Below are positions 1,550 through 62,625 of a stretch of 64,000 bases of DNA, piece after piece; position 1 is the stretch's first letter, and the number at the start of each line of letters is the position of its first letter. The position numbers and the translations under genes were made by a program. This DNA is from a phage: the sequence record PQ536907.1; one strand, written 5' to 3'. The notes under the pieces are model-generated. The model was given only the letters and a program-made list of their open reading frames with translations, did no database searches and was not told the origin of the DNA.

Positions 1550-3643
1550 TTATCCTTGAACGAACTTGTAAGGCATGTTTGTAATATCTATGCAAGACGC
1601 AATAATTCCAAGAGATGATTCTACTTTCTGTTTAACGTTTGATGAAACAAATGATGCAAAGTCAACTCTGTCTTCTACTTCAATATCACCTGTCATTGCA
1701 ACTACTTCACCGGTTTCCATTAAATGGTCTCCGTCATAGATTACCGATTCGGTGAGCTCTTCCGTAGTCATAACTTCAGCTTGAATGAGTTTTGTATTAT
1801 TAGATGTTGTTCCGTCATTATTAGAAGCATCAGTTATTTTATTAACTTTGACCATCAATCCACGCGGTAGAATAACTTCAGCTTCTGTTGCTATTCCGAG
1901 ACTTCCTGGATATACAACATTAACTTTATGAGCTCCATCAATTGCCCATCCTATTTGAACTTTAACGTATTCAGGATTTTCTTTATACGCTCTTATTTCG
2001 TTTGGATTAATAGTTATTCCTTCTTCATTTTTATCAACTGTCAATTCATTACGAGCTTCTGGTTCTAAAAGACCAATACCAGCATGTGTAATTCCAAAAC
2101 GCCCAAAAATGATAGGAGTTAAAGAAGTAGATACAAAATTTCTGAAATAGAACACTTTATTTTTAACTAGCGCTTCGTATATAGGAGCAGTCATACTTTG
2201 AGCACGATAAACTGTAATGCCTTCCGGTATGCGGTCACCATTTTCAAAAGCTGAATCTAAATTATTTATAGCAGATTCAATTTCTTTTTCACTCATTACA
2301 TCATATCGTTCTGGATTGTAACGACCTAAAAGAAGATTATTGATGTCAGTATATCCTGAACCACAATACTCTCTAATGCCGCGCTTTTGTGATGGAGTAT
2401 ATTTAGAACCATCACGGGCAATAGTAATATCAATCATTGGACCTGCACCAATTCCAGAAAAACTATAAATCATTCTTTTGAGGAATTTAGTTTTTGCTGC
2501 ATTCCAGGCATTTTTAGTTATTTCTTCCCAGACTTCATCTGGCTGCCCTTTACGAGTTTTATTATGTTTATCAAGCCAATTATCTTTATATTCTTCAAAG
2601 AGTTGATTAACAGCTGCTGCGTATTTCTCTAAACATTTTATTGAAGTAGTTGGTTCATTTTTAATCGCATTAAGAATTACATCTTTAATTTTTTCAGAAA
2701 CTTCATTAACCTCACTTTTTGAAAAGAATTTATAGTCATAATGAAGTTCATCTGCAGTTCCTTCAGCAATAATTTTTGCTGCCTTAGTTTTAGAAGCTAA
2801 TGAATTAATTCCAATTTTCATTTCTTCTGCTTCGGGAATTAAAGGTGCAGTAGCTGGTTTATTAAAATTAGCTGCTGTAGATTCATACTTCTGGAATAAT
2901 TCACTTTCAAATCTAGAAGATTCCAATGACTGGCTTTGTGCAATTGCTCTACGGGAAATTTTAACTTTAACGATTACAGCTTGGTCAGAACGTTTATCAT
3001 TTTCTTGTGCAATAGATGCTGCAATTGCCTCATTTTTGGTTACTTGGGCTCCAGTATCTTTATTGATATAAACATCACCGACTTTCGATTCAACTTTAGT
3101 AAAGAGCTCGGTACTAATTTCCGGAACTCCTGGAATGTCTTCTAGTGATACATTTTTACGATGTATAAGAATATATGCATACTTTTTATCGTAATCCCAG
3201 AGTTCCTTAAGAAGGACGTATCTGCCACCTGAACGACTACGGATAAGTCTATCAGCAATAACTTGAATTTGTCGAGCTTGACCAGCGGTTTTAGACTTAA
3301 GAATACGAAGCATACAAGCATCAATTTTATATTGACGCATTGTTTGCATTGCAACAGTAAAAACTGAATTGATATAATTAATTGGGCTTGGACCAAGACC
3401 TTTTAATTTAGCAATTGAACCTTTAGCAGTTAATGTAAAAGGAACGATATGCATCATTTTATCGCCCATTTTTAAATCGCGATTAGTATCACCTCCAGAT
3501 GTATACGTGCATAAACGAAAGCCTGGTTGTTCAATTGCATCATCAACATGAACTGAAAAAATTTGTGGTATTTTCTTCTTTGGATTTAAGTTTGTAATCG
3601 GAAGAGTAGTATCTTCGTCAAATAATTCTGTAATGAGTTCCAT
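1550..3643 (-). CDS. alt: Alt, packaged RNA polymerase ADP-ribosyltransferase
   Basis: 698-codon ORF (start taken at 2nd Met, MELITELFDEDTTLPITNL...), matches recalled T4 Alt; R / STS / E motifs (VYRAQS, FVSTSL, EAEVILP). Confidence 0.9.
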   Translation of the reverse strand: MELITELFDEDTTLPITNLNPKKKIPQIFSVHVDDAIEQPGFRLCTYTSGGDTNRDLKMGDKMMHIVPFTLTAKGSIAKLKGLGPSPINYINSVFTVAMQTMRQYKIDACMLRILKSKTAGQARQIQVIADRLIRSRSGGRYVLLKELWDYDKKYAYILIHRKNVSLEDIPGVPEISTELFTKVESKVGDVYINKDTGAQVTKNEAIAASIAQENDKRSDQAVIVKVKISRRAIAQSQSLESSRFESELFQKYESTAANFNKPATAPLIPEAEEMKIGINSLASKTKAAKIIAEGTADELHYDYKFFSKSEVNEVSEKIKDVILNAIKNEPTTSIKCLEKYAAAVNQLFEEYKDNWLDKHNKTRKGQPDEVWEEITKNAWNAAKTKFLKRMIYSFSGIGAGPMIDITIARDGSKYTPSQKRGIREYCGSGYTDINNLLLGRYNPERYDVMSEKEIESAINNLDSAFENGDRIPEGITVYRAQSMTAPIYEALVKNKVFYFRNFVSTSLTPIIFGRFGITHAGIGLLEPEARNELTVDKNEEGITINPNEIRAYKENPEYVKVQIGWAIDGAHKVNVVYPGSLGIATEAEVILPRGLMVKVNKITDASNNDGTTSNNTKLIQAEVMTTEELTESVIYDGDHLMETGEVVAMTGDIEVEDRVDFASFVSSNVKQKVESSLGIIASCIDITNMPYKFVQG

Positions 3644-3666
3644 CATATCCTCTCTAGTGTTTATTC

Positions 3667-3674
3667 TATTTATA
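3667..3674 (-). promoter_or_regulatory. T4 late promoter box TATAAATA upstream of alt, preceded by GC stem-loop (3682-3695)
   Basis: Minus-strand TATAAATAG about 30 nt upstream of alt ATG; hairpin aggcccgaaggcct just upstream. Confidence 0.5.
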
Positions 3675-3695
3675 AAATTAAAGGCCCGAAGGCCT

Positions 3696-3884
3696 TTAAT
3701 AATCTAGTGGTAAGAGAGTACGATATATTTCAAACTTTGGTCCTTTTTCATAGGCATCAAATGTTTCTGTAAATTTATTATAAGCGTATGCATCTACAAA
3801 TTCGAGAATGACTTGTGATACAGAAGTAGAAACATCTCCACCTTCTTTTTGAGCAATGACAATTGTTTCTAAGTAAGCTTTCAT
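3696..3884 (-). CDS. hypothetical protein (62 aa)
   Basis: ORF packed between ligase and alt, stop overlaps ligase start region. Confidence 0.5.
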   Translation of the reverse strand: MKAYLETIVIAQKEGGDVSTSVSQVILEFVDAYAYNKFTETFDAYEKGPKFEIYRTLLPLDY

Positions 3885-5344
3885 AGACCAGTTACCTCAT
3901 GAAAATCACCAAATACATCTTCGAATGTATTAGCTTTAGTTTTATCTTCACGTAAACGAATCGCAATCGGAAGAAATAATTTAACGTAATCAGTGCGGCC
4001 ATCAGATTTTAACCAACCGTTGCATTCGCACTCTAGAATTTTTCCAATATAATAATTTTGGTTTTCCATAATGCGAGTACGGTCAAGCTCATGTGATTTT
4101 ACGCCGGCTTTATCTTTTAAGCCTGAACCAGCATTTACTTTAATTTTTCCACACTCTGATTCAAGAATAAATCCACCTGCTTTAGTAGGGTCTTTACGGT
4201 GAGGATAAATTCCTACAATTTTTAAATCAACATCAATTACTTCTTTAAATTTATAGAGATTTTTTGAACGAGCATTTTCCCATAATCCATCGATATTTTT
4301 GAGAATAATACCTTCAAGACCTTGGTCAATATACTTTTTATAAATTACCTTAGCTTCATCTAGGTTATTTACTACTTGGTTTTCAATTAAAATTACTTTA
4401 TCATAGCCTGATGTCATTTGTTCTAGTTTAGAAAAACGTACATCATATTTTAAACGAAATGCTGGAAGACCGTATATTTCTACCAACGGAACATAATCCC
4501 AGACCTGAAACTTCATGCATTGAGCTTCTTTTTCTGAAATAGTTCCCTTTAAAGATTTATTAGCGATTCCATTAGAAGTAGTACGTGATTCAGCTACTTC
4601 AGCAAACTCTTTAGCTTTACTAATTTCAGGATAAGCATCAAAAAGAAAATCTAGGCCTTCTGGCTCCTTTTTAACTTGCTCATGGTATACCAATTCGCCA
4701 TCAATTAACACACCTTCTGGATGAATCTGGCGGGCTTCAGCGGTCATTTTGATTAACTCTTCCTTAAGAAGATCTAATCCTAGATATTCATTACCAGCTC
4801 GTGATAAAAGACGGACATCATCTAATTCATCACCTCTAACTTCAGCAAAACACCGAGCTCCATCTGCTTTTAATTGTGCAAAGGCTGGAAATTTGATATT
4901 CTTACTAATGCCTTTTTCATCATAAGAACTTGCGAGCATTTGAGGTTGTTCAGGAATTAAACCTGGCCAAACTTTGTTTGCAATAGATACTGAAGCACCA
5001 CATTCAAGGTCTCGCATCATCACTCGACGCAAAACTTCAACATCATCTTTTTTACCATCGGTGATATATCCAGATAATTCCTCAATTGCCGCATTTCCGG
5101 TCAATTTCCGAGTAGCTAACGTGAATTCAATGAAGTCAAGCATATCGGTAAGAGTCAACATTCCAAAACTCTGGGTAGCAATACCCGGTTTAGGCCATTT
5201 CTTGATATAATACTGTAACCCACGAGAATAAGTCAGACGATATACTCGTTTAAGCAATTCATTATCTTTATTCTTTTCAAGAATTGCTTGCTTCTGCTTA
5301 GTTGAACCAATAGATGCTATTTCGTTCAGAATTTTAAGAATCAT
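3881..5344 (-). CDS. 30: ATP-dependent DNA ligase
   Basis: 487 aa, MILKILNEIASIGSTKQKQAILEKNKDNELLKRVYRL... matches recalled T4 DNA ligase; adenylation lysine motif KADGAR. Confidence 0.95.
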   Translation of the reverse strand: MILKILNEIASIGSTKQKQAILEKNKDNELLKRVYRLTYSRGLQYYIKKWPKPGIATQSFGMLTLTDMLDFIEFTLATRKLTGNAAIEELSGYITDGKKDDVEVLRRVMMRDLECGASVSIANKVWPGLIPEQPQMLASSYDEKGISKNIKFPAFAQLKADGARCFAEVRGDELDDVRLLSRAGNEYLGLDLLKEELIKMTAEARQIHPEGVLIDGELVYHEQVKKEPEGLDFLFDAYPEISKAKEFAEVAESRTTSNGIANKSLKGTISEKEAQCMKFQVWDYVPLVEIYGLPAFRLKYDVRFSKLEQMTSGYDKVILIENQVVNNLDEAKVIYKKYIDQGLEGIILKNIDGLWENARSKNLYKFKEVIDVDLKIVGIYPHRKDPTKAGGFILESECGKIKVNAGSGLKDKAGVKSHELDRTRIMENQNYYIGKILECECNGWLKSDGRTDYVKLFLPIAIRLREDKTKANTFEDVFGDFHEVTGL

Positions 5345-5610
5345 TGTTCATCCTTTAGAGTTTGGTTTACAGCTCTATTATAAATCAATTCATCATTAAG
5401 CTCAGTCAAAGACCTGTGGTACGTGGTTCTAACTTTATTTCCTTGCATCCAATGCTTGACGTAAATGAAACCTTGCTCTACACATTTTTTAAAAATTCGT
5501 TCGTCTTTTTGAGCTCGGAATTCTGGATTGCATCTAAAAAATTGATTTACGTGACCGTAATCACGTGTAGTATTACCTTCATTTTCATAAATAGTGTGAA
5601 CAACAAACAT
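5341..5610 (-). CDS. hypothetical protein (89 aa; 30.1-like position)
   Basis: ORF, synteny with T4 30.x block. Confidence 0.5.
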   Translation of the reverse strand: MFVVHTIYENEGNTTRDYGHVNQFFRCNPEFRAQKDERIFKKCVEQGFIYVKHWMQGNKVRTTYHRSLTELNDELIYNRAVNQTLKDEQ

Positions 5611-11966: not shown

Positions 11967-13381
<1,415 letters not shown>

Positions 13382-16428: not shown

Positions 16429-17607
16429 TTAAAAGTATTTTTTAAAACTCATCATAACTTTATCATCAACATCATTATCAATCTGCGCTACAAGGTAAGA
16501 TGACAGTTCTACTTCTTGCGGCGCGGATTGAACATTATCAGAATTAAGGTATTCACGAATCCAAGGATATGGATGTTTAACCGGAGCATCGGTAATTGGG
16601 CATGGAAGACCACACTGTTTCATACGAGATACAGTTAAGTAATCAATAAAGCTCCACATGCTATTTGTATTTAATCCAGGAACATCGCCATTTTTAAATA
16701 AATGAACTGCCCAATCTTTTTCTTGGCGGTTAACTTCCATGAAAATATCAACTGCTTCTTGTTCACACTCTTTGGCAATTTTAACCCATTCATCACCATC
16801 CGTGCCAAGTTGAAGTTGACGAATAATATATTGTGTACCTTTAAGATGAAGCTGCTCATCACGTGCAATGAACTTCATAATCTTGGCATTACCTTCCATG
16901 ATTTCCATGTTCTTATGGAAGTTAAAGGTACATGCGAAAGATACATAAAAACGAATAGCTTCCAATGCGTTGATTACGTGTAGGCAGAGGTAAAGAGAGC
17001 GCATTAGTTCACGTTTCCAATACATTTCATGCTCTATGGCATCTTTAATATCATCTTCGTCTGCATTAATTTCTTTTTGGTATTCGATATCAGCTTTAGC
17101 GTTTTCCCAATAACGAGTTTTAATCAGAACATCATCATAATAGCGTCCAATAGATTCGGCTCGTTTCATGATTGCTTCATCTAATACAATCTCATCAAAT
17201 ACCTTTGACGGATCAGTATAAAGATTTCGCATGATATGTGTATATGAACGACTGTGAATAGTTTCACTAAAAGTCCATGTAGCAACCCATGTATCAAGAC
17301 TTGGGTCTGAAATTAACGACATAAGTACAGCAGACGGTGCACGACCCTGAATGCTATCTAGAAGTGATTGATACTTCAGGTTATTAGTAAAAATATCTTG
17401 CTGATATTGAGGAAGCTTGTTAAATTGCGCAGCATCCATCATTAAGTTTACTTCTTCAGGACGCCAGAAAAATGACAACTGCTTTTCGGTTAAATCTTCA
17501 AAAACTTTATGACGTTGAATATCATAACGCGCAATACCAAGGCCTGAACCAAAAAACATAGGTTCTTTTAAAACATCAACTGGATTTGTATTAAAAACTG
17601 TGCTCAT
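16429..17607 (-). CDS. nrdB: ribonucleotide reductase small subunit (uninterrupted)
   Basis: 392-aa continuous ORF with diiron/tyrosyl radical protein features; no intron. Confidence 0.95.
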   Translation of the reverse strand: MSTVFNTNPVDVLKEPMFFGSGLGIARYDIQRHKVFEDLTEKQLSFFWRPEEVNLMMDAAQFNKLPQYQQDIFTNNLKYQSLLDSIQGRAPSAVLMSLISDPSLDTWVATWTFSETIHSRSYTHIMRNLYTDPSKVFDEIVLDEAIMKRAESIGRYYDDVLIKTRYWENAKADIEYQKEINADEDDIKDAIEHEMYWKRELMRSLYLCLHVINALEAIRFYVSFACTFNFHKNMEIMEGNAKIMKFIARDEQLHLKGTQYIIRQLQLGTDGDEWVKIAKECEQEAVDIFMEVNRQEKDWAVHLFKNGDVPGLNTNSMWSFIDYLTVSRMKQCGLPCPITDAPVKHPYPWIREYLNSDNVQSAPQEVELSSYLVAQIDNDVDDKVMMSFKKYF

Positions 17608-17658
17608 AAATTTTCCACTTAGTTAATAGATAGTGACTCGTCCATGAGTCAAATTATA

Positions 17659-19923
17659 TCATAATTTACAGGATGAACAATCTTCAGCTTTTGGAGTTTC
17701 TATTTCATAATCATCAGTACCAGAACCATCGCGGGTATTATGATAATAGAAATTTTTTCCGCCAAAATACCAAAAATACAAAAGGTCATCAATCATTATT
17801 GACATTGGAACCTTTCCTTTTGGAAAAATCTGCGGGTCATAATATGTATTCGCCGAAGCTGATTGACAAACCCATTTCAGCATAATAGCTACCTGCGTAA
17901 GATAAGGTTTATTACCTTTCTTAGCTAATTTCCATGTATAATCATAGAGGTCTATGTTATGCTCAATATTGGGCACGACTTGATTAAAGGAGCCCTCTTT
18001 TGATTCTTTAACAGAGACTGGTCCACGTGGAGGCTCGATACCGTTTGTACTGTTAGAAACTTGGGAAGATGACTCACATGGCATAAGTGCTGATAATGTG
18101 CTATTACGGATGCCAAAGAGCTTAAGGTCTTCCCGCAGCGACGACCAGTCACAAACGTATTTTGGAGCTGCGATTTGGTCAATCTTTTTATTGTACCAGT
18201 CGATAGGTAATTCGCCTCGAGACCAACGAGTGTCTGAATAATATTCGCAAGGTCCTTTTTCTTTGGCGAGCTTAATGGATGCTTTAATGAGTCCATACTG
18301 TAATCTCTCAAATAGTTCATGTGTTAAATCGTTAGCATCTTCATAAGAAGCAAAGTTACTTGCCAGCCAAGCTGCATAGTTAGTAACACCTACACCAAGG
18401 TTTCGACGCTTTTTAGCTTTTTCTGCTTCAGGAACTGGATATCCTTGGTAATCCAAAAGATTATCAAGAGCACGAACTTGAACTTCTGCCAATTCATTAA
18501 TTTTATCTTGGTCTTGCCAATCGAAGTTATCCAGCACAAATGCAGATAACGTGCACAATCCAATTTCAGCATCGGGGCTATTCACATCATTTGTTGGAAT
18601 AGCAATTTCACAGCACAAGTTACTCTGACGAATAGGTGCCTTTTCACGAATAAATGGAGTATAGTTATTCGTATTATCAATGAACTGTACATAAATCCTT
18701 GCTGTTCCTGAGCGTTCAGTCATGAGCAATTCAAATAGTTCACGGGCTTTAATACGCTTTTTACGAATATTAGGGTCTTTTTCTGCTGCTTCGTATAATT
18801 CACGGAAACGGTCTTGGTCTTTAAAATAAGAATAATAAAGCTCGCCACCCATTTCATGCGGACTGAACAAAGTAATGTAATCGTTCTTTCCGAATCGTTC
18901 CATCATCAAATCATTCAGCTGAACACCATAATCCATATGACGAATGCGGTTTTCTTCTACGCCTTTGTTATTTTTCAAAACGAGAAGATTTTCAACTTCC
19001 AAATGCCAAATAGGATAATAAGCAGTAGCAGCGCCGCCACGAATTCCACCCTGTGAACATGATTTAACTGCAGTCTGAAAATGTTTCCAAAAAGGAATAA
19101 CACCGGTATGGCGTACTTCACCCATGCCAATCTTAGAACCTTCAGCACGAATCATACCAACGTTAATACCAATTCCAGCGCGTTTAGAGATATATTCAAC
19201 AATTGAAGCGGAAGCCTTATTGATAGACTTTAATGAATCACCTGCCTCAATAACAACGCATGAACTAAACTGTCGAGTCGGAGTACGGCAACCAGCCATA
19301 ATAGGAGTTGGCAATGAAATCTGTCGAGTAGATACTGCTTCATAAAAACGGATAACATGTTTTAGTCTATCAACAGGTTCATCTTGATGCAGTGCCATTC
19401 CAATAGTCATAAATGCAAACTGTGGAGTTTCATAAATTTGACCGGTGGTTTTATCTTTAACTAGATATTTTTCTTTTAATTGCATCGCCCCGGAATAAGT
19501 AAATTCCATATCCCGCTCGTGCTTAATTTTTGATTCTAAAAATGTAATTTCTTCTGCTGAATATTTTGACAATAATTCAGGGTCATATTTACCTGCATTT
19601 ACACAATAAGAAATATGGTCAATAAATGAACGCGGTTCATACTGCCCATAAACATGCTTACGAAGAGCGAACATTAGACAACGTGCAGCTACATATTGAT
19701 AATCAGGCTCTTCAACCGAAATAGAATTCGCAGCGGCCTTAATGACAATAGTCTGAATATCATCAGTTGTCATTCCATCACGGAGATAAGATTTAATATT
19801 TTCATATAATTCATAAGGATCTACTGATGTTCCTTCAGCTGCCCAAGATAAAACTTTAATAATTTTTTGTGGGTCAAAGCTCTGAGAAACACCACTACTT
19901 TTGATAACATTGATTAATTGCAT
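17659..19923 (-). CDS. nrdA: ribonucleotide reductase large subunit
   Basis: 754 aa; class Ia RNR catalytic motifs (NLCCEI, C-terminal CSSCKL). Confidence 0.95.
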   Translation of the reverse strand: MQLINVIKSSGVSQSFDPQKIIKVLSWAAEGTSVDPYELYENIKSYLRDGMTTDDIQTIVIKAAANSISVEEPDYQYVAARCLMFALRKHVYGQYEPRSFIDHISYCVNAGKYDPELLSKYSAEEITFLESKIKHERDMEFTYSGAMQLKEKYLVKDKTTGQIYETPQFAFMTIGMALHQDEPVDRLKHVIRFYEAVSTRQISLPTPIMAGCRTPTRQFSSCVVIEAGDSLKSINKASASIVEYISKRAGIGINVGMIRAEGSKIGMGEVRHTGVIPFWKHFQTAVKSCSQGGIRGGAATAYYPIWHLEVENLLVLKNNKGVEENRIRHMDYGVQLNDLMMERFGKNDYITLFSPHEMGGELYYSYFKDQDRFRELYEAAEKDPNIRKKRIKARELFELLMTERSGTARIYVQFIDNTNNYTPFIREKAPIRQSNLCCEIAIPTNDVNSPDAEIGLCTLSAFVLDNFDWQDQDKINELAEVQVRALDNLLDYQGYPVPEAEKAKKRRNLGVGVTNYAAWLASNFASYEDANDLTHELFERLQYGLIKASIKLAKEKGPCEYYSDTRWSRGELPIDWYNKKIDQIAAPKYVCDWSSLREDLKLFGIRNSTLSALMPCESSSQVSNSTNGIEPPRGPVSVKESKEGSFNQVVPNIEHNIDLYDYTWKLAKKGNKPYLTQVAIMLKWVCQSASANTYYDPQIFPKGKVPMSIMIDDLLYFWYFGGKNFYYHNTRDGSGTDDYEIETPKAEDCSSCKL

Positions 19924-20240: not shown

Positions 20241-20457
20241 ATTGTTTTTCCGTTAAAACAGTAATATCGTAGTAACAGTCAGAAGAAGTTTTAACTGTGG
20301 AAATTTTATTGTCAAAATACTCACGAGTCATTTTATGAGTATAGTATTTTTTACCATAAATGGTAATAGGCTGTTCTGGTCCTGGAACTTCTAACTCGCT
20401 TGGGTTAGGAAGTGTAAAAAGAACGACACCAGAAGTATCTTTAAATCGTAAAATCAT
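20194..20457 (-). CDS. hypothetical protein (87 aa; nrdA.2-like)
   Basis: ORF, synteny. Confidence 0.45.
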
Positions 20458-21314
20458 ATTGCCATTTTCCCTTTAATTGCTGGATGCGATTCATAATTTT
20501 CAAGGATAAAATCTTTCGGTTTCATGTATTCAGTTAACCAGTAAAGCTGTGTTTCGGTGTCACAATTTCCAAACTCTATAGGCCAATCAATTTTAAGTTC
20601 ACACAGTTCTTTAGGCTCACGACGTAAAATTTCTTTACATTGCTCAGTATGATTCATATAGATGTGAGTATTACCACCAGAAAATATCAAATCTCCTGGG
20701 ATAAGATTACACATCTTAGCCACAATATGCGTCAAGGCAGCGTACGAGGCAATGTTGAATGGCAAGCCCAAGAAAACATCTACACTTCTTTGGTACCATT
20801 GTAAATCAAGATAACCATTACGCACATTAAACTGATAGAACATATGACAGGGCGGTAATGCCATTTGATTGGTTTCAGCTGGATTCCATGCTGAAACGAT
20901 TTGACGTCGATCAGTTGGTAATTTTTTAATACGATCAATAGTTTCAACTAATTGATCCACACCACCGAAATCACGCCATTGTTTACCGTATATAGGACCA
21001 AGTTCACCACTATGATATCCTAGGTCTTTAGCCTGGTTTTCATAGTTATCGTCCCAAATAGTTTTACCTTGAATAAGACTACCATGAGTGCGAAGACGTA
21101 AATCATTAACATTGGTAGAACCGGAAATAAACCATAGAAGCTCAGCAATACATGCATTCCACGCAAGCTTCTTAGTTGTTACCGCAGGAAAACCTTTAGT
21201 TAAATCCCAGCGTAATTTAGTACCGAACAAAGCAATTGTTCCTGTGCCTGTTCGGTCATCGGTTTCATAACCATTTTCAAAAATGTCTTTAATTAAATCT
21301 TGGTATTGTTTCAT
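20454..21314 (-). CDS. td: thymidylate synthase (uninterrupted)
   Basis: 286-aa continuous ORF; TS active-site region [11 protein letters not shown]; no intron. Confidence 0.95.
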
Positions 21315-21358: not shown

Positions 21359-21706
21359 TCAATACGGTTTAGCATCAAATTTTCTCTCAATTTCAGGCGT
21401 GAAATATAATTCTTTACCGCGTTTGGAAAAGCGACCAATAATATGATAATTATTCTCATCAAACGTGATATTACCAATATCCATAGCTTTCAACCAAATA
21501 TCGATATTTCTATCCAGCTTTATGTCAAAATTCCAATACGGAGAACTATTACCGAAAATACTACAAGCGGATTCAGTGAAACAGCTACTATAAATCTTGT
21601 CTTTAGGAACTACTAATTGGTAGACACCTTTAATAAACTGAGGACCTTGCCATTTTGGCTGTTTCTCGTCTTTTTCTAACAGAATAGGGTAATAATTAAA
21701 ATTCAT
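21359..21706 (-). CDS. hypothetical protein (115 aa) inserted between frd and td
   Basis: ORF fills the 411-bp gap between frd stop (21726) and td start (21314); no recognisable motifs. Confidence 0.5.
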   Translation of the reverse strand: MNFNYYPILLEKDEKQPKWQGPQFIKGVYQLVVPKDKIYSSCFTESACSIFGNSSPYWNFDIKLDRNIDIWLKAMDIGNITFDENNYHIIGRFSKRGKELYFTPEIERKFDAKPY

Positions 21707-24825: not shown

Positions 24826-24916
24826 TTTTATTTCCTTTTTAATTTAATTAACAGTTGGTGCTATGACGATGTATGACCTCATAGCTGGTCAGTGAGATAA
24901 TTATAATCTATTTATA
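24826..24916 (-). promoter_or_regulatory. Gene 32 5' leader: AU-rich autoregulatory operator, candidate pseudoknot, and late promoter TATAAATA
   Basis: Minus-strand leader ...ctcactgaccagctatgaggtcatacatcgtcatagcaccaactgttaattaaattaaaaaggaaataaaaATG; TATAAATAG at 24909-24916. Confidence 0.55.
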
Positions 24917-24924
24917 ATAAGCAA

Positions 24925-32920: not shown

Positions 32921-35900
32921 ATGGCTACTTTAAAACAAATACAATTTAAAAGAAGCAAAACCGCAGGTGCACGTCCTGCTGCTTCAGTATTAGCCGAAGG
33001 TGAATTGGCTATAAACTTAAAAGATAGAACACTTTTTACTAAAGATGATACAGGAAATATCATTGATTTAAGTATTTCCGCTGGCGGTAATATCAGTGGA
33101 AATATCACTCAAACTGGTGATTATTTACAAAATGGAACATATAATCTTAATGGAAACCAGTTTGTTTATGCTGGTAAATATATTGAATTCCTGCCTAAAA
33201 CCGCGGGTAATGGTGCTTGGGCAAACCAACATAAAAATAAAGCTCCTATCTTTACCGATTTGAGTTCAACTACTTCTACTTCAGAATACCATCCGCTAAT
33301 TAAACAACGCTATAAAGATGGAACTTTTTCTGTTGGTACGTTAGTAAATGAAGGAAGTTTTAAAATTCAATATATCAATGAATCTGGTGATTCAAAATAT
33401 TGGACTTTTAATCGAAACGGTAGTTTTATTGTAGATAATGGCAATATTAAAGTTCGTGCTGGTAATATTTCCGCTTCAGGCAATATTAATTCAGCTACTG
33501 GGATGGTTTCTGCTCCACAGATTAATACAAAAACCATAGTTTTTAATACAAAAGCATTCGGACAATATGATTCGCAGTCATTAGTTCAATATGTTTATCC
33601 TGGAACAGGTGAAACAAACGGAATCAATTACCTTCGCAAATTCCGTGCTAAATCTGGTGGTACAATTTATCATGAATTAGCTTCTGCGCAAACCGGAAAA
33701 AGTGATGAACTTTCTTGGTGGACTGGTAATACAGCGGTTAATAAACAAATGGGCCTTCGCAATGATGGGTCTTTAGTACTACGACGTTCACTTGCAATTG
33801 GTACAATTACAACAGATGAAAACATCAATAACTACGGTTCCACTGGAGCAATGGGCAAATGTTATATAGTTATCGGTGATGCATCAACGGGTTTATCATA
33901 CAAAAAAACTGGGGTATATGACTTAGTTGCTAGTGGTCTTTCTGTAGCATCTATTACTCCTGATAGTTTCCGTAGTACGCGCAAAGCGATTTTTGGACGC
34001 TCGGAAGACCAAGGTGGTACGTGGATTCTTCCTGGTCAAAACGCAGCTCTTCTTTCAGTTCATACTGAAGTTGACCAAAACAATAATGGAGATGGTCAGA
34101 CACATATTGGCTATAATAGTAATGGTAAATTTTATCATTATTTTAGAGGCAGAGGAAGAATGGCCATTGGAATGGCCGAAGGACTTATTGTTGAACCAGG
34201 AATTTTAGATATTAAAACTGGTTCAAATACATTAAGTTTGCGTGCTGATGGTACCGTCGCTTCTGTTCAAACATTAAAGCTTAATAATGGATTATATTTT
34301 AATAGTGATGGAACTAACGCTTCTCTAATTTTTAAAGCAGCTTCAGGTATTGATGGTACTAAACAAATACTTTGGGAAGGTGGTACTCGTGCTGGGCAGA
34401 ATAAGAGCTATGTAACTGCTAAAGCTTGGGGAAATTCATTTAATTCATCTGGCGATCGTAATCGTGAAACGGTTTTTGAAGTATCAGATGGACAAGGATA
34501 TTATTTTTATGCTCAACGTGTAGCTCCTGCACCAGGTTCAACAACTGGAGTAGTTCAATTTAGAGTTGCTGGAGCATTATTAACTTCTGGTGGCATTACA
34601 TCATCCGGTTCTATTGTTACTGAATCTAGTTTAGTTGCTAATAATGGATTATCTGTAAATGGTCAAGCTAAATTTGGTGGAACAGCAGATGCATTAAGAA
34701 TTTGGAATGCTGAATACGGCGCAATTTTCCGTCGTTCAGAAGCATCATTACATATTATCCCGACTCCTAAAGATGCTGGTGAAAGTGGTGGAATAAGTAA
34801 TCTCCGCCCGCTAAGTATTAGTCTTAATAATGGTATGGTACAAATGCGCCATTCTGTTACGTTAGGCGATGATGGCACTGGCGGTAATATGATTACTGTG
34901 GACAACGATAACAAACGTGTTGTTGTTGCTAGTAATAGTCGTATTGCTCCTAATTTCAGAATGCAATTAGGACAATCATCTTATATTGATGTAGAATGTA
35001 CTGATGCTGCTCGCCCAGCCGGTGCAGGTTCATTTGCATCCCAGAATGACGCAAACGTAAGAGCTCCAATTTATATGAATATAGAGCGTACTGCTGCTTC
35101 TGAATATATTCCAATTGTTAAACAGCGGTATGTAAATGGTGATAGTACTTATTCTATTGGCACCTTAATTTCTCAAGGAGACTTTCGCGTTCATTATCAC
35201 CAGGGTACTAGTACTACCGGTACTGATTTAAGCTGGGAATTCCGTCGCAATGGTGATTTCCGCGCGGCAGGTAAAATTATTGCCGGTGCTGCTACTTTTG
35301 GCACTGATGGTAATATTACTGGTGGTTCAGGAAACTTTGCCAACTTAAACAGCACAATTGAATCACTTAAAACTGATATTGTTTCAAGTTATCCTATTGG
35401 GGCTCCTATTCCATGGCCAACGGATACTCCTCCTGACGGTTACGCTATTATGGAAGGCCAGACCTTTGATAAGTCTGCGTATCCAAAGCTAGCTGTTGCA
35501 TATCCTAGTGGCGTTATTCCGGATATGCGCGGGCAAACTATTAAAGGTAAACCGAGTGGTCGTAATGTATTAAGCGCGGAAGCTGATGGTATTAAGTCTC
35601 ATACCCATGGAGCATCTGCATCCAATACAGATTTAGGTACTAAAACTACATCAAGCTTTGATTATGGCACTAAGACCTCTTCAAGTTTTGACTATGGTAC
35701 TAAAACCAGTAATACCACAGGTAACCACTCTCATACTGTAAGCGGTACTACGAGTTCTGCTGGTGCACACCAACATGCGCGCTCAGGTCCTCAGTTACAA
35801 GCCGGCATACCCAATAACATATTCTATGACGGATATAATACTGTAGGTGCAAACGCCAACGCTAAAATCACCGGATCTGTGAGCGGTGCTACTGCAGGGT

Positions 35901-36145
35901 CAAATATAGCCAAAACTTCTTCAGACGGTGCTCATACTCATACTTGGTCTGGTACTACAAGCACTACAGGTAACCATGCTCACACAGTAGGTATTGGTGC
36001 TCATACCCATACTGTAGGTATCGGTGCTCATACCCACACGGTAGCAATTGGCTCGCATGGTCATACTATCACTGTAAATAGTACAGGTAATACAGAAAAC
36101 ACGGTTAAAAACATCGCTTTTAACTATATCGTTCGTTTAGCATAA
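32921..36145 (+). CDS. 37: gp37 long tail fibre distal subunit (receptor-binding tip)
   Basis: 1074 aa; C-terminus ...[11 protein letters not shown]; His-box repeats [14 protein letters not shown]; T4-type, with the chaperone gp38 downstream. Confidence 0.9.
35597..36075 (+). repeat. His-rich repeat region of gp37 tip (HxH boxes; GTKT.SSFDY and GAHTHTVGI tandem repeats)
   Basis: Direct nucleotide and amino-acid tandem repeats in the C-terminal domain. Confidence 0.6.
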
Positions 36146-36172: not shown

Positions 36173-36724
36173 ATGAAAATTTATCATTATTATTTTGACA
36201 CTAAAGAATTTTATAAAGAAGAAAATTATAAACCAATTAAAGGATTAGGTCTTCCTGCACATTCAACAACTAAAAAACCTTTAGAACCTAAAGAAGGATA
36301 TGCGGTTGTATTTGATGAAAGAATTCAAGATTGGATTTATGAAGAAGACCATCGCGGCAAACGAGCATGGACTTTTAATAAAGAAGAAATTTTTATAAGT
36401 GACATTGGAAGCCCGGTTGGTATAACCTTTGATGAGCCCGGCGAATTTGATATATGGACTGATGACGGTTGGAAAGAAGACGAAACATATAAACGCGTTT
36501 TAATTCGCAATAGAAAAATTGAAGAATTATACAAAGAATTCCAAGTTTTAAATAATATGATTGAAGCTTCTGTCGCGAATAAAAAGGAAAAATTCTATTA
36601 TAAAAACCTTAAGCGGTTCTTTGCTCTTTTAGAAAAGCATGAGCATTTAGGTGGTGAATTCCCTTCATGGCCTGAAAAAGAACGGAAACCTTGGTATAAG
36701 CGTTTATTCAAGCATTACGTATAA
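36173..36724 (+). CDS. 38: gp38 tail fibre assembly chaperone (T4-type)
   Basis: 183 aa, MKIYHYYFDTKEFYKEENYKPIKGLGL... matches recalled T4 gp38. Confidence 0.9.
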   Translation: MKIYHYYFDTKEFYKEENYKPIKGLGLPAHSTTKKPLEPKEGYAVVFDERIQDWIYEEDHRGKRAWTFNKEEIFISDIGSPVGITFDEPGEFDIWTDDGWKEDETYKRVLIRNRKIEELYKEFQVLNNMIEASVANKKEKFYYKNLKRFFALLEKHEHLGGEFPSWPEKERKPWYKRLFKHYV

Positions 36725-48280: not shown

Positions 48281-50098
48281 CTACTGGCTCATCCATTCTT
48301 TACGAAGGTCAGCATTATCTCCCATGAGCATTTCAAAAAGCTCTTTCCAGTTCTCAGGAAGTTTAACAACATCATATACTGGATTTTGAATCATCTCACG
48401 ATATTCAGATTTTTCCAAAGAGCCAAGTCCTTTAATATAACGGATGCTATGTTTAGGTAGAGCATCTTTGGCACTCTCATATTCAGCGACTGTATAAAAC
48501 CATTCTTGTTTTTTACCGACCTGAGCGATGATTACCGGAGTTTTGACAAAGCGAATTCGTCCTTGCTCAAACAATTCTGGCCAATTACTAAAAAACCCGA
48601 GCAGAGAAGGATAAATGCTTCCTAGACCATCATGGTCAGCATCAGTCATAATAGCAATATTGCGATAATTCAAGTTTTCAGCCTTTTCACCAAGAACTAG
48701 ACCAGTGATTGCGCAAATATCAAATAGTTCTTTGTTTTTAAGCATATCAGCATATGACATACCCCAACTGTTGAGAACTTTACCACGCAATGGATAACCA
48801 CCATGAAGTTCTTTATCACGAACATCAATAAGATATCCGATAGCCGAATCACCCTCAGTCAGGAAAAGAGTAGTGTCAGCATCTTTACCACAAAGATTCG
48901 CTTTGATATGTTTATGAACTTTAGCTTTAGAAGCCTTTTTAGCTGCTTTAGTTTCAGCTGCTTTTTCTGCTGCCAATTTACGGGCCAAGGCAGCTTCAAT
49001 AATTGGCATCAAAATAGCTTCATTATTTAGAATAGCGCGTGAAATCTTTTTAGCATCAAGCTGAATATGACTACGAATTTCGCCAAATGGAGAAGTCAAA
49101 CGCTCTTTAGTTTGAGAATCAAATCGCATGTTTTTCATATCACGAACAAACATAACGATAGTCAAACATTCTTTAACACGTGCTTTAGTTACATCAATTT
49201 TGAACTTACGTTTGATTTGTGGAATAAGGTCTTCACAAATATCATCCATAACACAGTCAATGTGATGGCCACCATTCTTAGTGTGAATGTTATTCACGTA
49301 AGTTAATTGACGAAATCCATCCGGTGAACGACCAACCGCAATAGAACAATTTTCTTGTTCTTGAACAATAGCATGTTCATCATACTGTCGTGCATATTTC
49401 TTAAAATTGCCCTGAACCTTTTTACCATTAAAGGTAAATTGAATATCAGGATAAACAACAGCAAGTGTCTGGAGACGATCTAGTGTAATGTCAAGATAAA
49501 CTTGGGACAGCTCATTAGTTTCAAATGACATAAAATCTGGAATGAAAGTAACACGAGTTCCTTTCCATTTTCCAGGAATAGTTTCCCAGGATTTATTTTC
49601 CATGCCATTTGAACAACGAACTACAATATTATTTTGACCATCGCCAGTTTCACCGACAAACATCACAGAAAAAATGTTAGTTAAACTAGAACCAACACCA
49701 TTCATACCACCGGTGACACGTTCTTTATCATCACCAAAGTTACCACCCGCTTTTGGAATAGTCCAAGCAGCAACTGGACCAGGAATTTCTTCACCGGTAG
49801 GTGTTTTAACCATCGCTTGTGGAATACCACGACCGTTATCTTCAACTGTTACTTGATTGTTTTTAATAGTAACATTAATTTTATTTGCGAATTTAAACTT
49901 AGTACGAATACCTTCATCGACTGAGTTATCGATAATTTCATCAATAAGCTTAACAAGACCAGGTACATACTGAACACTTTCCCATTTACCAAACAGAAAG
50001 CGCTCATGCATTTCATTAGCAGAAGAGCCAATGTACATGCCACTACGCTTTTTGATATGTTCAATATCGCTCAGAATTTTAATTTCATTCTTAATCAT
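48281..50098 (-). CDS. 39: DNA topoisomerase II large subunit (GyrB-like), unsplit form
   Basis: 605 aa from MIKNEIK...; continuous through ...NIAIMTDADHDGLGSIYPSLLGFF..., covering what T4 encodes as gp39 plus gp60. Confidence 0.9.
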   Translation of the reverse strand: MIKNEIKILSDIEHIKKRSGMYIGSSANEMHERFLFGKWESVQYVPGLVKLIDEIIDNSVDEGIRTKFKFANKINVTIKNNQVTVEDNGRGIPQAMVKTPTGEEIPGPVAAWTIPKAGGNFGDDKERVTGGMNGVGSSLTNIFSVMFVGETGDGQNNIVVRCSNGMENKSWETIPGKWKGTRVTFIPDFMSFETNELSQVYLDITLDRLQTLAVVYPDIQFTFNGKKVQGNFKKYARQYDEHAIVQEQENCSIAVGRSPDGFRQLTYVNNIHTKNGGHHIDCVMDDICEDLIPQIKRKFKIDVTKARVKECLTIVMFVRDMKNMRFDSQTKERLTSPFGEIRSHIQLDAKKISRAILNNEAILMPIIEAALARKLAAEKAAETKAAKKASKAKVHKHIKANLCGKDADTTLFLTEGDSAIGYLIDVRDKELHGGYPLRGKVLNSWGMSYADMLKNKELFDICAITGLVLGEKAENLNYRNIAIMTDADHDGLGSIYPSLLGFFSNWPELFEQGRIRFVKTPVIIAQVGKKQEWFYTVAEYESAKDALPKHSIRYIKGLGSLEKSEYREMIQNPVYDVVKLPENWKELFEMLMGDNADLRKEWMSQ

Positions 50099-50167
50099 CA
50101 CTTATCCTCGTTTGGTTTCGGGAATATTATACTCCGGTAATCATAAAGCTAAAGGCCCGAAGGCCTT

Positions 50168-50437
50168 TTATTTAAAACGAATAGTTGAATCCTTAAAGAA
50201 CAGCCCAGAACATACTGTTCCTTCTACTTTCTGCCCGGTAGGTCCAATAGCACGAAATCCAGTATGTTGGAAATCATTTTCAGAGCAACCGAACCAGTTA
50301 TATCCAGTGATTTCAATATTAGTAAAACCGCTTGAAGATAAAACTTTGGTTGCATTATCAGCATCAGTACATCCTACTAAAGATACTGCTAATACTAATG
50401 CTGCAATAGAACGATTAATATATTTCATAATTTTCAC
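50168..50437 (-). CDS. putative lipoprotein (89 aa)
   Basis: Signal peptide with lipobox LVGC. Confidence 0.5.
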   Translation of the reverse strand: MKIMKYINRSIAALVLAVSLVGCTDADNATKVLSSSGFTNIEITGYNWFGCSENDFQHTGFRAIGPTGQKVEGTVCSGLFFKDSTIRFK

Positions 50438-50805
50438 TTAAATTTAATGGCTTGAAGAAGACTAATAATTCTCAAGCGACTTCTTTCATCTTTAACTGTA
50501 AAAGAAAGAGGGTCACCAGATTTCATAGTAATAGTACATTCAAAATCAAAATCTTCGGGAACTTCTTCGAATAGGTCAAATTCTTCATCATAAATTAGAA
50601 CATTACTCTGAAAACTGTGAAGAATTTTTCCATCATTTCCAGATGCTGTACTAATCATTGTAACATTATTACCTTTCATATCTTCAACGATAAATTCGCT
50701 TGTAGATATTACATTACTAATAGAACCATTCCTATAAATAGCAGAAAATAGATATTTCTTTTCTTCACCTTCGCGAATACGATACTTCTTACCGATTTTA
50801 AACAT
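50434..50805 (-). CDS. hypothetical protein (123 aa)
   Basis: ORF. Confidence 0.5.
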   Translation of the reverse strand: MFKIGKKYRIREGEEKKYLFSAIYRNGSISNVISTSEFIVEDMKGNNVTMISTASGNDGKILHSFQSNVLIYDEEFDLFEEVPEDFDFECTITMKSGDPLSFTVKDERSRLRIISLLQAIKFK

Positions 50806-50986: not shown

Positions 50987-51412
50987 TTATTCCTTAAAGT
51001 GTGCTTTCAACATCTGATACAAGGACCATGCCTGTTCATTATTTTCAATAGTAACTTTCATGACCGGGAATTCTGTGAAATCTTCTATTTGTTCTTGCTC
51101 TTGCTCTTCCTGCTCTTGCTCTTCAGCTGCCTGATATGGATTTTCCACTTCATCAAAGAACTCGGCTTCGTTAGTAGAGAGCCAGATAAAGTTTTCGTCA
51201 AGGATATCACCATGTGTTGCATATCCAATTGTGCCAGTAAATGACATAATTTTAGTAGGACGACCAAGATGGTCAACATCTAAAATTTTAAAAGGATGCA
51301 TACCTAAACGTCGTGCATAAATTCCGTTATCAGTATGGTCTTTAATAAAAGCTTCTTGAGCTTGTTTATTTTTAAATTGATACCATTTATTAACTTCAAA
51401 TTTAATAGCCAT
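50987..51412 (-). CDS. hypothetical acidic protein (141 aa), possibly goF/comC-alpha by position
   Basis: Length and position between 39 and cef; [11 protein letters not shown] acidic repeat. Confidence 0.45.
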
Positions 51413-61434: not shown

Positions 61435-61644
61435 TTAAATTACATGATTATTTATAATAAATTCTCGCGGAACGTTAAAATACCCGATTTTAGTTAATAT
61501 AACAACATCACCGTTAATAATTACCGGAGAATAATCTTCTGGAGCATTAAATTTCCAATGGGCTCTAATATTATATCCATCAGAACCAAATGCTCGAGTA
61601 GCCGGTCTCCCGGCTTTTTGCCACGCGTAGAAATCAAATTTCAT
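61435..61644 (-). CDS. hypothetical protein (69 aa)
   Basis: ORF in soc-56 interval. Confidence 0.45.
   Translation of the reverse strand: MKFDFYAWQKAGRPATRAFGSDGYNIRAHWKFNAPEDYSPVIINGDVVILTKIGYFNVPREFIINNHVI
61449..61456 (-). promoter_or_regulatory. T4 late promoter TATAAATA for soc
   Basis: Minus-strand TATAAATAAT about 30 nt upstream of the soc ATG. Confidence 0.6.
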
Positions 61645-61835
61645 TTTGAATGATCTATAATTAATTTTAAATCTTCTTCACTGACAAAAATTTCGTCAGG
61701 ACCTTCTATAACTTCAACCATACGAAGTTGATTAGTTAAGAGCTCACATACGAGCTCCTTGTTATAATCTTTAAATAGCTGGTCAATACGTTTCTTATGG
61801 GCTTTCTTAAGCTGACGCTTATTTAAACGAGCCAT
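61641..61835 (-). CDS. hypothetical protein (64 aa)
   Basis: ORF in soc-56 interval. Confidence 0.45.
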   Translation of the reverse strand: MARLNKRQLKKAHKKRIDQLFKDYNKELVCELLTNQLRMVEVIEGPDEIFVSEEDLKLIIDHSK

Positions 61836-62353
61836 TAATAACCTCGGTCTTGACGAGCGAAGTTTTCAGCATTTTTCAGGTAATAAAGTTTAAAGATTTC
61901 TTCAGCTGACATTCCAAGAGCAATAAATTTATTCATGAAAAAATGAAATTGGTCAATAAGTTCAAATTTAATTTCAAGCTGATCTTCGGGAGATAAATCT
62001 TGAATTTTCTTGGATTGCATTTCAGAATAACGTTTCTTCCAAGGTTTCCATACAGCAGAAGCTTCTTTTTCGCCATTACTCATACCACCGAGAGAAGTAT
62101 ATAGCTCGCGAGTTTCGTCTGCGATATAATCGTCTTGGTTTCGCAGCCAAGCAAGAACTTCTCCTGCAGTTTCAAGTGAATCAGGATGACGATTTGTTTC
62201 TGGTTTATCATTAGCCAAACGAATCTGTAAATGCCGCTGCATATCAAGCATAACCTGCAGTGGGTCAATATTGTGCATAATATTCTCAGCATATGCACGA
62301 TTTGCTTTATCAACACCTTCGATCAAATGAGCACATTCATTAAAGTAAGCCAT
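61835..62353 (-). CDS. 56: dCTP pyrophosphatase (dCTPase/dUTPase, MazG-like)
   Basis: About 172 aa from internal Met MAYFNECAHLIEGV...; candidate MotA box plus TATAAT upstream. Confidence 0.9.
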   Translation of the reverse strand: MAYFNECAHLIEGVDKANRAYAENIMHNIDPLQVMLDMQRHLQIRLANDKPETNRHPDSLETAGEVLAWLRNQDDYIADETRELYTSLGGMSNGEKEASAVWKPWKKRYSEMQSKKIQDLSPEDQLEIKFELIDQFHFFMNKFIALGMSAEEIFKLYYLKNAENFARQDRGY

Positions 62354-62424: not shown

Positions 62425-62625
62425 ATGGTACAAAAATTAATGGCACTTGTTAATGCCATAAAAGGTAATAAAAAACGTATAGCTTTTACTATTTCTGCTA
62501 TGGTAGGAATTTTACTCTGGAACTTTATTCTATCACCTATTGCAATTGCACATGGTATTAATATTCCAGTAGTTACTATTGATACATTCGTAGATCTAGC
62601 ATTTGCTTTAGTTGGGTTAATTTAA
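62425..62625 (+). CDS. small hydrophobic protein (66 aa) on the opposite strand between 56 and 61
   Basis: Strong SD AAGGAGG 5 nt upstream of ATG; two hydrophobic segments; ORF exactly fills the 56-61 gap; stop overlaps gene 61 stop. Confidence 0.45.
   Translation: MVQKLMALVNAIKGNKKRIAFTISAMVGILLWNFILSPIAIAHGINIPVVTIDTFVDLAFALVGLI

Follow-up and report, generated by a model that had tools for sequence, protein, structure and literature searches.

In T-even phages, the gene for the large subunit of DNA topoisomerase II is known in an unsplit form, gene 39 of T2 and T6, and in T4 the same enzyme is encoded by split genes 39 and 60, which come with a MobA/50-nt bypass cassette (Huang et al. 1988; Bonocora et al. 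2011; Manning & Atkins 2022). According to the papers cited here, published descriptions of the unsplit arrangement go back to the 1980s. Manning & Atkins (bioRxiv 10.1101/2022.08.31.505936) describe it as the parental form that the MobA element entered. This element of ~1.1 kb did so in six clades independently, and 55-75 nt of the gene were replaced. On the 5' side, the points of insertion are within nt 1399-1419 (aa 466-473, RB14 numbering), the 3' end falls just after D490/G491, and in the T4 clade the element reaches 9 nt past the bypass cassette (bioRxiv 10.1101/2022.08.31.505936). As Bonocora et al. 2011 are summarized in the same preprint, MobA nicks gene 39 of T2 within the segment that is replaced and moves the split and the bypass together; the preprint's account puts the nick site inside the replaced stretch, ~20 nt upstream of the bypass site. 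For the T6 topoisomerase, cryo-EM structures (PDB 8ylu and others, Nat Commun 2024) and relaxation activity have been reported (PMC11461880).

We analyzed a window of 64,000 nt, the whole stretch of phage DNA taken from record PQ536907.1. It belongs to a T4-like phage (Tequatrovirus), and its nearest records in our collection are ~96-97% identical over 24 kb. The topoisomerase genes lie on the minus strand, where the gene order is gp52, ndd, denB, rIIB, rIIA, rIIA.1, gene 39, 39.1 (Table 1). Gene 39 is almost certainly the ordinary, uninterrupted gene of a Tequatrovirus, from which the MobA/bypass cassette is absent, and no result of the analysis speaks against this.

Table 1. Coordinates of gene 39, of landmarks in the gene and its product, and of related loci in the window
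Feature	Position	Strand	Description and basis
Gene 39, unsplit, topoisomerase II large subunit	48281..50098	minus	605 codons + stop; ORF listing, homology
Upstream signals of gene 39	50099..50170	minus	Putative hairpin, -10, MotA-box-like motif, Shine-Dalgarno; by eye
Codon 473, GCT, Ala	48680..48682	minus	Last codon common with T4 gene 39
Parental stretch swapped for the cassette in T4	48617..48680	minus	64 nt; alignment
Codons 491-492, GGT CTA, Gly-Leu	48623..48628	minus	Equivalent of the T4 bypass site
DNGRGIP	residues 87-93		GHKL ATPase; motif search
GGMNGVG	residues 130-136		GHKL ATPase, Gly-rich ATP-lid motif; motif search
QTK loop	residues 329-331		Transducer; motif search
EGDSA	residues 415-419		TOPRIM, acidic E; motif search
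DADHDG	residues 486-491		TOPRIM, DxDxD metal-binding residues; motif search
Gene 52, topoisomerase II medium subunit, 442 aa	40403..41731	minus	DNA-cleavage partner of gp39; homology
Sites of absent T4 homing elements	16429..17607 (nrdB), 17607..17663, 20454..21314 (td), 24888..24924, 61457..61871

Reading frame, domains and partner of the gene 39 product

The open reading frame was listed as 606 aa from a GTG (48281..50101), with an ATG one codon downstream at 50098. The start is this ATG, judging from the genes of T4, T2, T6 and slur02, which begin there too with MIKNEIK. By eye, a Shine-Dalgarno sequence GAGGA is placed 7 nt 5' of the ATG. Further upstream, a putative hairpin GGCCTTCGGGCC follows gene 39.1, and a candidate -10 element TATAAT is preceded by the MotA-box-like GCTTTA. 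An open frame of 605 codons in DNA of 36% G+C is far beyond chance, and its homologies mark it as a real gene. It has matches to Pfam domains and to PHROG 543, annotated as 'DNA topoisomerase II large subunit', which covers residues 1-605 (E = 2e-295).

All three domains expected of such a subunit are found in a single chain. The GHKL ATPase is detected by Pfam HATPase_c (E = 1.9e-9, over the curated cut-off) and the transducer domain by Pfam DNA_gyraseB (E = 1.5e-13), while TOPRIM_C spans residues 519-604. The Pfam Toprim model itself gave no score at E ≤ 0.001 on the gene 39 protein. The TOPRIM domain is continuous: both EGDSA and DADHDG are in the same chain, and the alignment of the TOPRIM region is unbroken against T6 gp39, human TOP2A/B and ParE. 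With ATPase, transducer, TOPRIM and partner subunit all found, the predicted protein fits the ATPase/TOPRIM subunit of a type IIA topoisomerase (GyrB, ParE or phage gp39).

The partner, gp52, matches PHROG 551 and is colinear over its full length (1-442) with the solved gp52 of T4/T6 (8ylu_A/8yo3_A, E ~5e-297). Together with a gp39 that carries the ATPase, the transducer and the complete TOPRIM in one chain, it would form an A2B2 type IIA topoisomerase like that of T2/T6. The large subunit would be made by normal triplet decoding, and neither ribosomal bypass nor a third subunit would be needed. We infer the assembly of the enzyme and its relaxation activity from the near-identity (99.7%) to the solved, active T6 enzyme.

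The genes 39 of T2 (AP018813) and T6 (MH550421) have 1818 nt, the same length as the gene in the window, and no indels separate them from it. The gap-free alignments give 96.6% nucleotide and 99.5% amino acid identity with T2, and 97.3% and 99.7% with T6; in 8ylu_C, the T6 gp39 chain solved by cryo-EM, residues 1-605 pair with residues 1-605 of the product. The differences are F70L and T173D against T2 and Q526H against T6, and both phages have H479 at the position of R479 in the window. In slur02, the protein is identical to that of the window (100%), and the gene aligns without gaps at 99.2% nucleotide identity. R479 (codon CGC) is thus common to the window and slur02, and H479 of T2 is encoded by CAT. 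The gene order rIIB, rIIA, rIIA.1, 39, 39.1 is also the same in T2/T6 and in the window, as is the partner subunit gp52. We conclude with near certainty that the gene is a gene 39 of the unsplit, 'parental' T2/T6 type. These results bear out the earlier note, which had described one 605-codon frame reading through the junction: the frame runs from the ATG at 50098 to a stop, and the alignment with T2/T6 gp39 that the note had proposed as a check is colinear over 1818 nt and free of gaps.

Comparison of the junction with the split genes of T4

The position of the T4 cassette was mapped with NC_000866 as the reference for T4. Residues 1-473 correspond to residues 1-473 of T4 gp39 (98% identity) and residues 472-605 to residues 27-160 of T4 gp60 (96%); beyond the split point, residues 474-605 match gp60 from its residue ~29 on. 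The last 43 residues of T4 gp39 and the first ~29 of gp60 are specific to T4 and have no counterpart in the window. At the nucleotide level, window 50190..48681 matches T4 5420..3911 (96.5%) and window 48616..48203 matches T4 2793..2380 (99.0%). Between these flanks are 1117 nt in T4 (2794..3910) and 64 nt in the window (48617..48680). The 1117 nt of T4 contain the gp39 tail, mobA/60.1, the gp60 leader, a recoded segment and the 50-nt coding gap, and right after codon 473 the T4 sequence goes on with the 43-aa C-terminal extension of gp39, mobA/60.1 and the N-terminal extension of gp60. The junction coordinates coincide with those of the 'parental' Topo2L genes, such as that of RB14, which are the unsplit partners of each MobA-bearing clade, with ~64 nt replaced and no difference in kind.

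The peptide AENLNYRNIAIMTDADHDGLGSIYPSLLGFF, quoted in the earlier note, is found at residues 473-503 of the gene 39 product. It takes in the point of the T4 39/60 split, which follows A473, as well as the T4 bypass site, whose equivalent lies between G491 and L492. At the bypass site, T4 reads GGA [TAG...50 nt...GGA] TTA GGT TCT, whereas the window reads GGT CTA GGA AGC. Codon 491, GGT, occupies 48628-48626 and is directly adjoined by CTA, with no stop and no gap. The last residue of the TOPRIM motif DADHDG coincides exactly with the T4 take-off codon. In T4, the split leaves the TOPRIM glutamate in gp39 and the DxDxD motif in gp60, and the coding gap comes immediately after DxDxD. Beyond the bypass site, the next 9 nt (CTA GGA AGC) are of the parental type as against TTA GGT TCT in T4, which agrees with the published 9-nt extension of the element in the T4 clade.

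The stretch that the cassette replaces in T4 is close to that of other unsplit genes; over 63 nt it is identical to slur02 and differs at 2 positions from T2 or T6. The recoded T4 segment, 'homR', differs from the window at 12/47 positions, mostly synonymous (a 46-nt piece aligns at 76%), and is the only part inside the T4 insert that resembles the window. A blastn comparison of the T4 insert with the window gave, besides homR, chance matches of 12-21 nt only.

Other remnants of the cassette were sought throughout the window. In tblastn searches of the 64 kb, the intact MobA of HY01 (272 aa) and the C-terminal extension of T4 gp39 and N-terminal extension of gp60 gave no match at E ≤ 10. With the threshold at E ≤ 1e-3, T4 gp60.1 and the annotated MobA fragment were likewise without a match. 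For the 50-nt bypass sequence, no 50-mer within 12 mismatches was detected on either strand of the window. With all of these searches combined, the sole homology is the expected one, that of the T4 recoded segment to codons 472-496. The RNA predicted from window 48590..48690 folds with a minimum free energy of -18.6 kcal/mol (z = -0.08 vs shuffles) and has neither the 5' nor the take-off stem-loop, whereas both are seen in the T4 region (z = -1.97). Base composition has no discontinuity across the locus, and the flanking genes rIIA.1 and 39.1 are syntenic and contiguous.

The earlier note had further claimed that gene 60, the mobile insertion and the bypass element are all missing, and the null blast searches, the 50-mer scan and the junction comparison agree with it. 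Aligning with T4 gp39 and gp60, as it had suggested, located the split point and the insertion exactly, and both are absent here. Its expectation that there would be no take-off and landing GGA codons held only in part. The gene has GGT at the take-off position and lacks a coding gap, but GGA does occur in frame at 8/46 Gly codons, one of them codon 493, the second after the bypass site. These codons are without significance in the absence of a gap.

A fused Topo2L of the 'hit-and-run' kind known from the Aeromonas clade was considered as a separate candidate and set aside, as residues 473-491 include no sequence beyond that of T2/T6 and have no similarity to either extension.

Frequency and origin of the unsplit gene

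The frequency of the two arrangements was assessed in a collection of phage records with a 241-nt junction probe, and a junction was counted as uninterrupted when at least 80% of the probe was covered in one piece. By this measure, 455 records have an uninterrupted junction. With the T4 insert as the probe, 43 records match, and in 41 of these the match extends over 80% or more of the insert. The split and unsplit groups add up to the 496 records with any match to the junction probe, which makes the unsplit gene the majority form (~92% of records, an unsplit to split ratio of ~10 to 1) and T4 the exception, with the mobA/bypass element in ~8-9% of sequenced Tequatrovirus genomes. A first count, in which 494/522 records matched a 2.4-kb query over 80% or more of its length, was discarded, because the search joins pieces up to ~1.7 kb apart and cannot separate split from unsplit genes.

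Outgroups support the view that the unsplit state is ancestral. The predicted protein aligns continuously through TOPRIM with human TOP2A/B and ParE, from residues 6-10 to residue 603, and the alignment with yeast Top2 covers residues 241-605. The reading of the locus as the ancestral arrangement, already put forward from inspection of the sequence, is upheld by this continuity and by the description of the parental form in the literature (bioRxiv 10.1101/2022.08.31.505936).

Two departures from this account were weighed jointly: that the gene is a clean reversion from a cassette-bearing ancestor, or that R479 alters the susceptibility to MobA homing. That either applies is very unlikely in our estimate. 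Around the nick site, R479 is the only nearby difference from T2, and the window and T2 are identical from codon 480 through the bypass site; moreover, polymorphisms in the segment alone reportedly did not stop MobA nicking, as cited in bioRxiv 10.1101/2022.08.31.505936. If one or the other were true, it would bear on why the mobA/bypass element stays at its low frequency.

Secondary reversion taken by itself, which we hold to be highly improbable, would make the unsplit gene derived: the cassette would have been present in an ancestor and then cleanly removed, as could happen through recombination in a cell co-infected by an unsplit relative. Losses of the endonuclease and cassette are known in the Aeromonas 'hit and run' and the Campylobacter clades, but these leave C- and N-terminal extensions (bioRxiv 10.1101/2022.08.31.505936), and none are present here. 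T-even phages do recombine freely, and the window is a mosaic ~96% identical to several relatives. Per-segment mismatches against T2, T6, slur02 and T4 are uninformative on co-conversion or recombination in the flanks, since the last 336 nt are near invariant in all of them (at most 4 mismatches per 168 nt). The replaced stretch and the 9 nt past the bypass site argue against reversion too, as both are of parental type and the stretch is far closer to slur02, T2 and T6 than to the T4 recoded segment. So does the predominance of unsplit genes, and the complete protein identity to slur02 suggests a placement among them.

An artifact of assembly or annotation, in which a genome split as in T4 would appear unsplit through mis-assembly or reads from a co-infecting phage, has a negligible probability given the same uninterrupted junction in hundreds of independent genomes, T2 and T6 among them (94-99.6% identity), the contiguous, syntenic flanks and the even composition. 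No evidence in favor of such an artifact was found.

Homing elements and other differences from T4

We found that the mobA cassette is one of several T4 homing elements that the window lacks. Five others are absent: the nrdB intron with I-TevIII, nrdB.1 + mobE, the td intron with I-TevI, segG and segF. A tblastn search with each T4 protein gave no match in the window at E ≤ 1e-3, and nrdB (392 aa) and td (286 aa) each form one continuous ORF. The missing cassette thus fits into a wider absence of T4 homing elements from these 64 kb. A patchy spread of homing-endonuclease elements is familiar among T-even phages.

The dam methyltransferase gene, which T4 has between genes 56 and 61 (16846..17625), is not found in the corresponding interval of the window (62446..62622). 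T4 Dam has no tblastn match anywhere in the window, and dam may lie elsewhere in the genome. This arrangement looks common, since at least 160 phage records cover at least 80% of the gene 56-61 region in one piece and a methyltransferase is annotated in 0/10 of those listed.

Several smaller differences from T4 were also observed. An extra ORF of 123 aa (50434..50805, minus strand) lies between 39.1 and 39.2; it belongs to PHROG 622, as does goF (50987..51412), and looks like a goF paralogue. T4 is without this ORF and T6 has it, annotated as 'similar to RB69ORF005c'. Gene 39.1 (50168..50437, minus strand) encodes 86 aa from an ATG, the length annotated in T6, or 89 aa from a GTG, as against 65 aa in T4; its N-terminus has a lipoprotein-like signal, MKYINRSIAALVLAVSLVGC, and it matches no Pfam family. 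Two ORFs on the minus strand, one of 106 aa beside pseT (13061..13381) and one of 115 aa between td and frd (21359..21706), have neither a T4 counterpart nor a Pfam match. The distal part of gene 37 (32921..36145), at 33078..36001 on the plus strand, has no megablast match to T4 and is 2924 nt long, compared to 2781 nt in T4. This part of the long tail fibre gene is the usual hypervariable region for host range. The gp38 gene downstream (36173..36724) is of the T4 type.

One further difference lies in gene 39 itself, before the QTK loop. Codons 326-328 read L-I-R in T4 NC_000866 and F-D-S in the window (49121..49113), T2, T6, HY01 and the resequenced T4 MT984581. The two readings are related by a compensating -1/+1 indel pair, CGATTGATTCGT against CGATTTGATTCT, and the L-I-R of the T4 reference is probably an old error or a strain-specific change.

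The description of gene 39 as unsplit is correct but already known. Such genes are routinely annotated, and the window adds one more genome with the parental allele. The importance of the result is mainly in correct annotation: the gene should be entered as one CDS, 'DNA topoisomerase II large subunit' (gp39, T2/T6 type), without a programmed bypass. Some records name the unsplit gene gp60plus39 or 60plus39. For the phage, a two-subunit topoisomerase is to be expected. The unsplit allele is the natural target of MobA homing, and that of the window is probably susceptible, given its identity to the nicked T2 substrate from codon 480 through the bypass site. Such a phage could act as a recipient in homing crosses, like T2.
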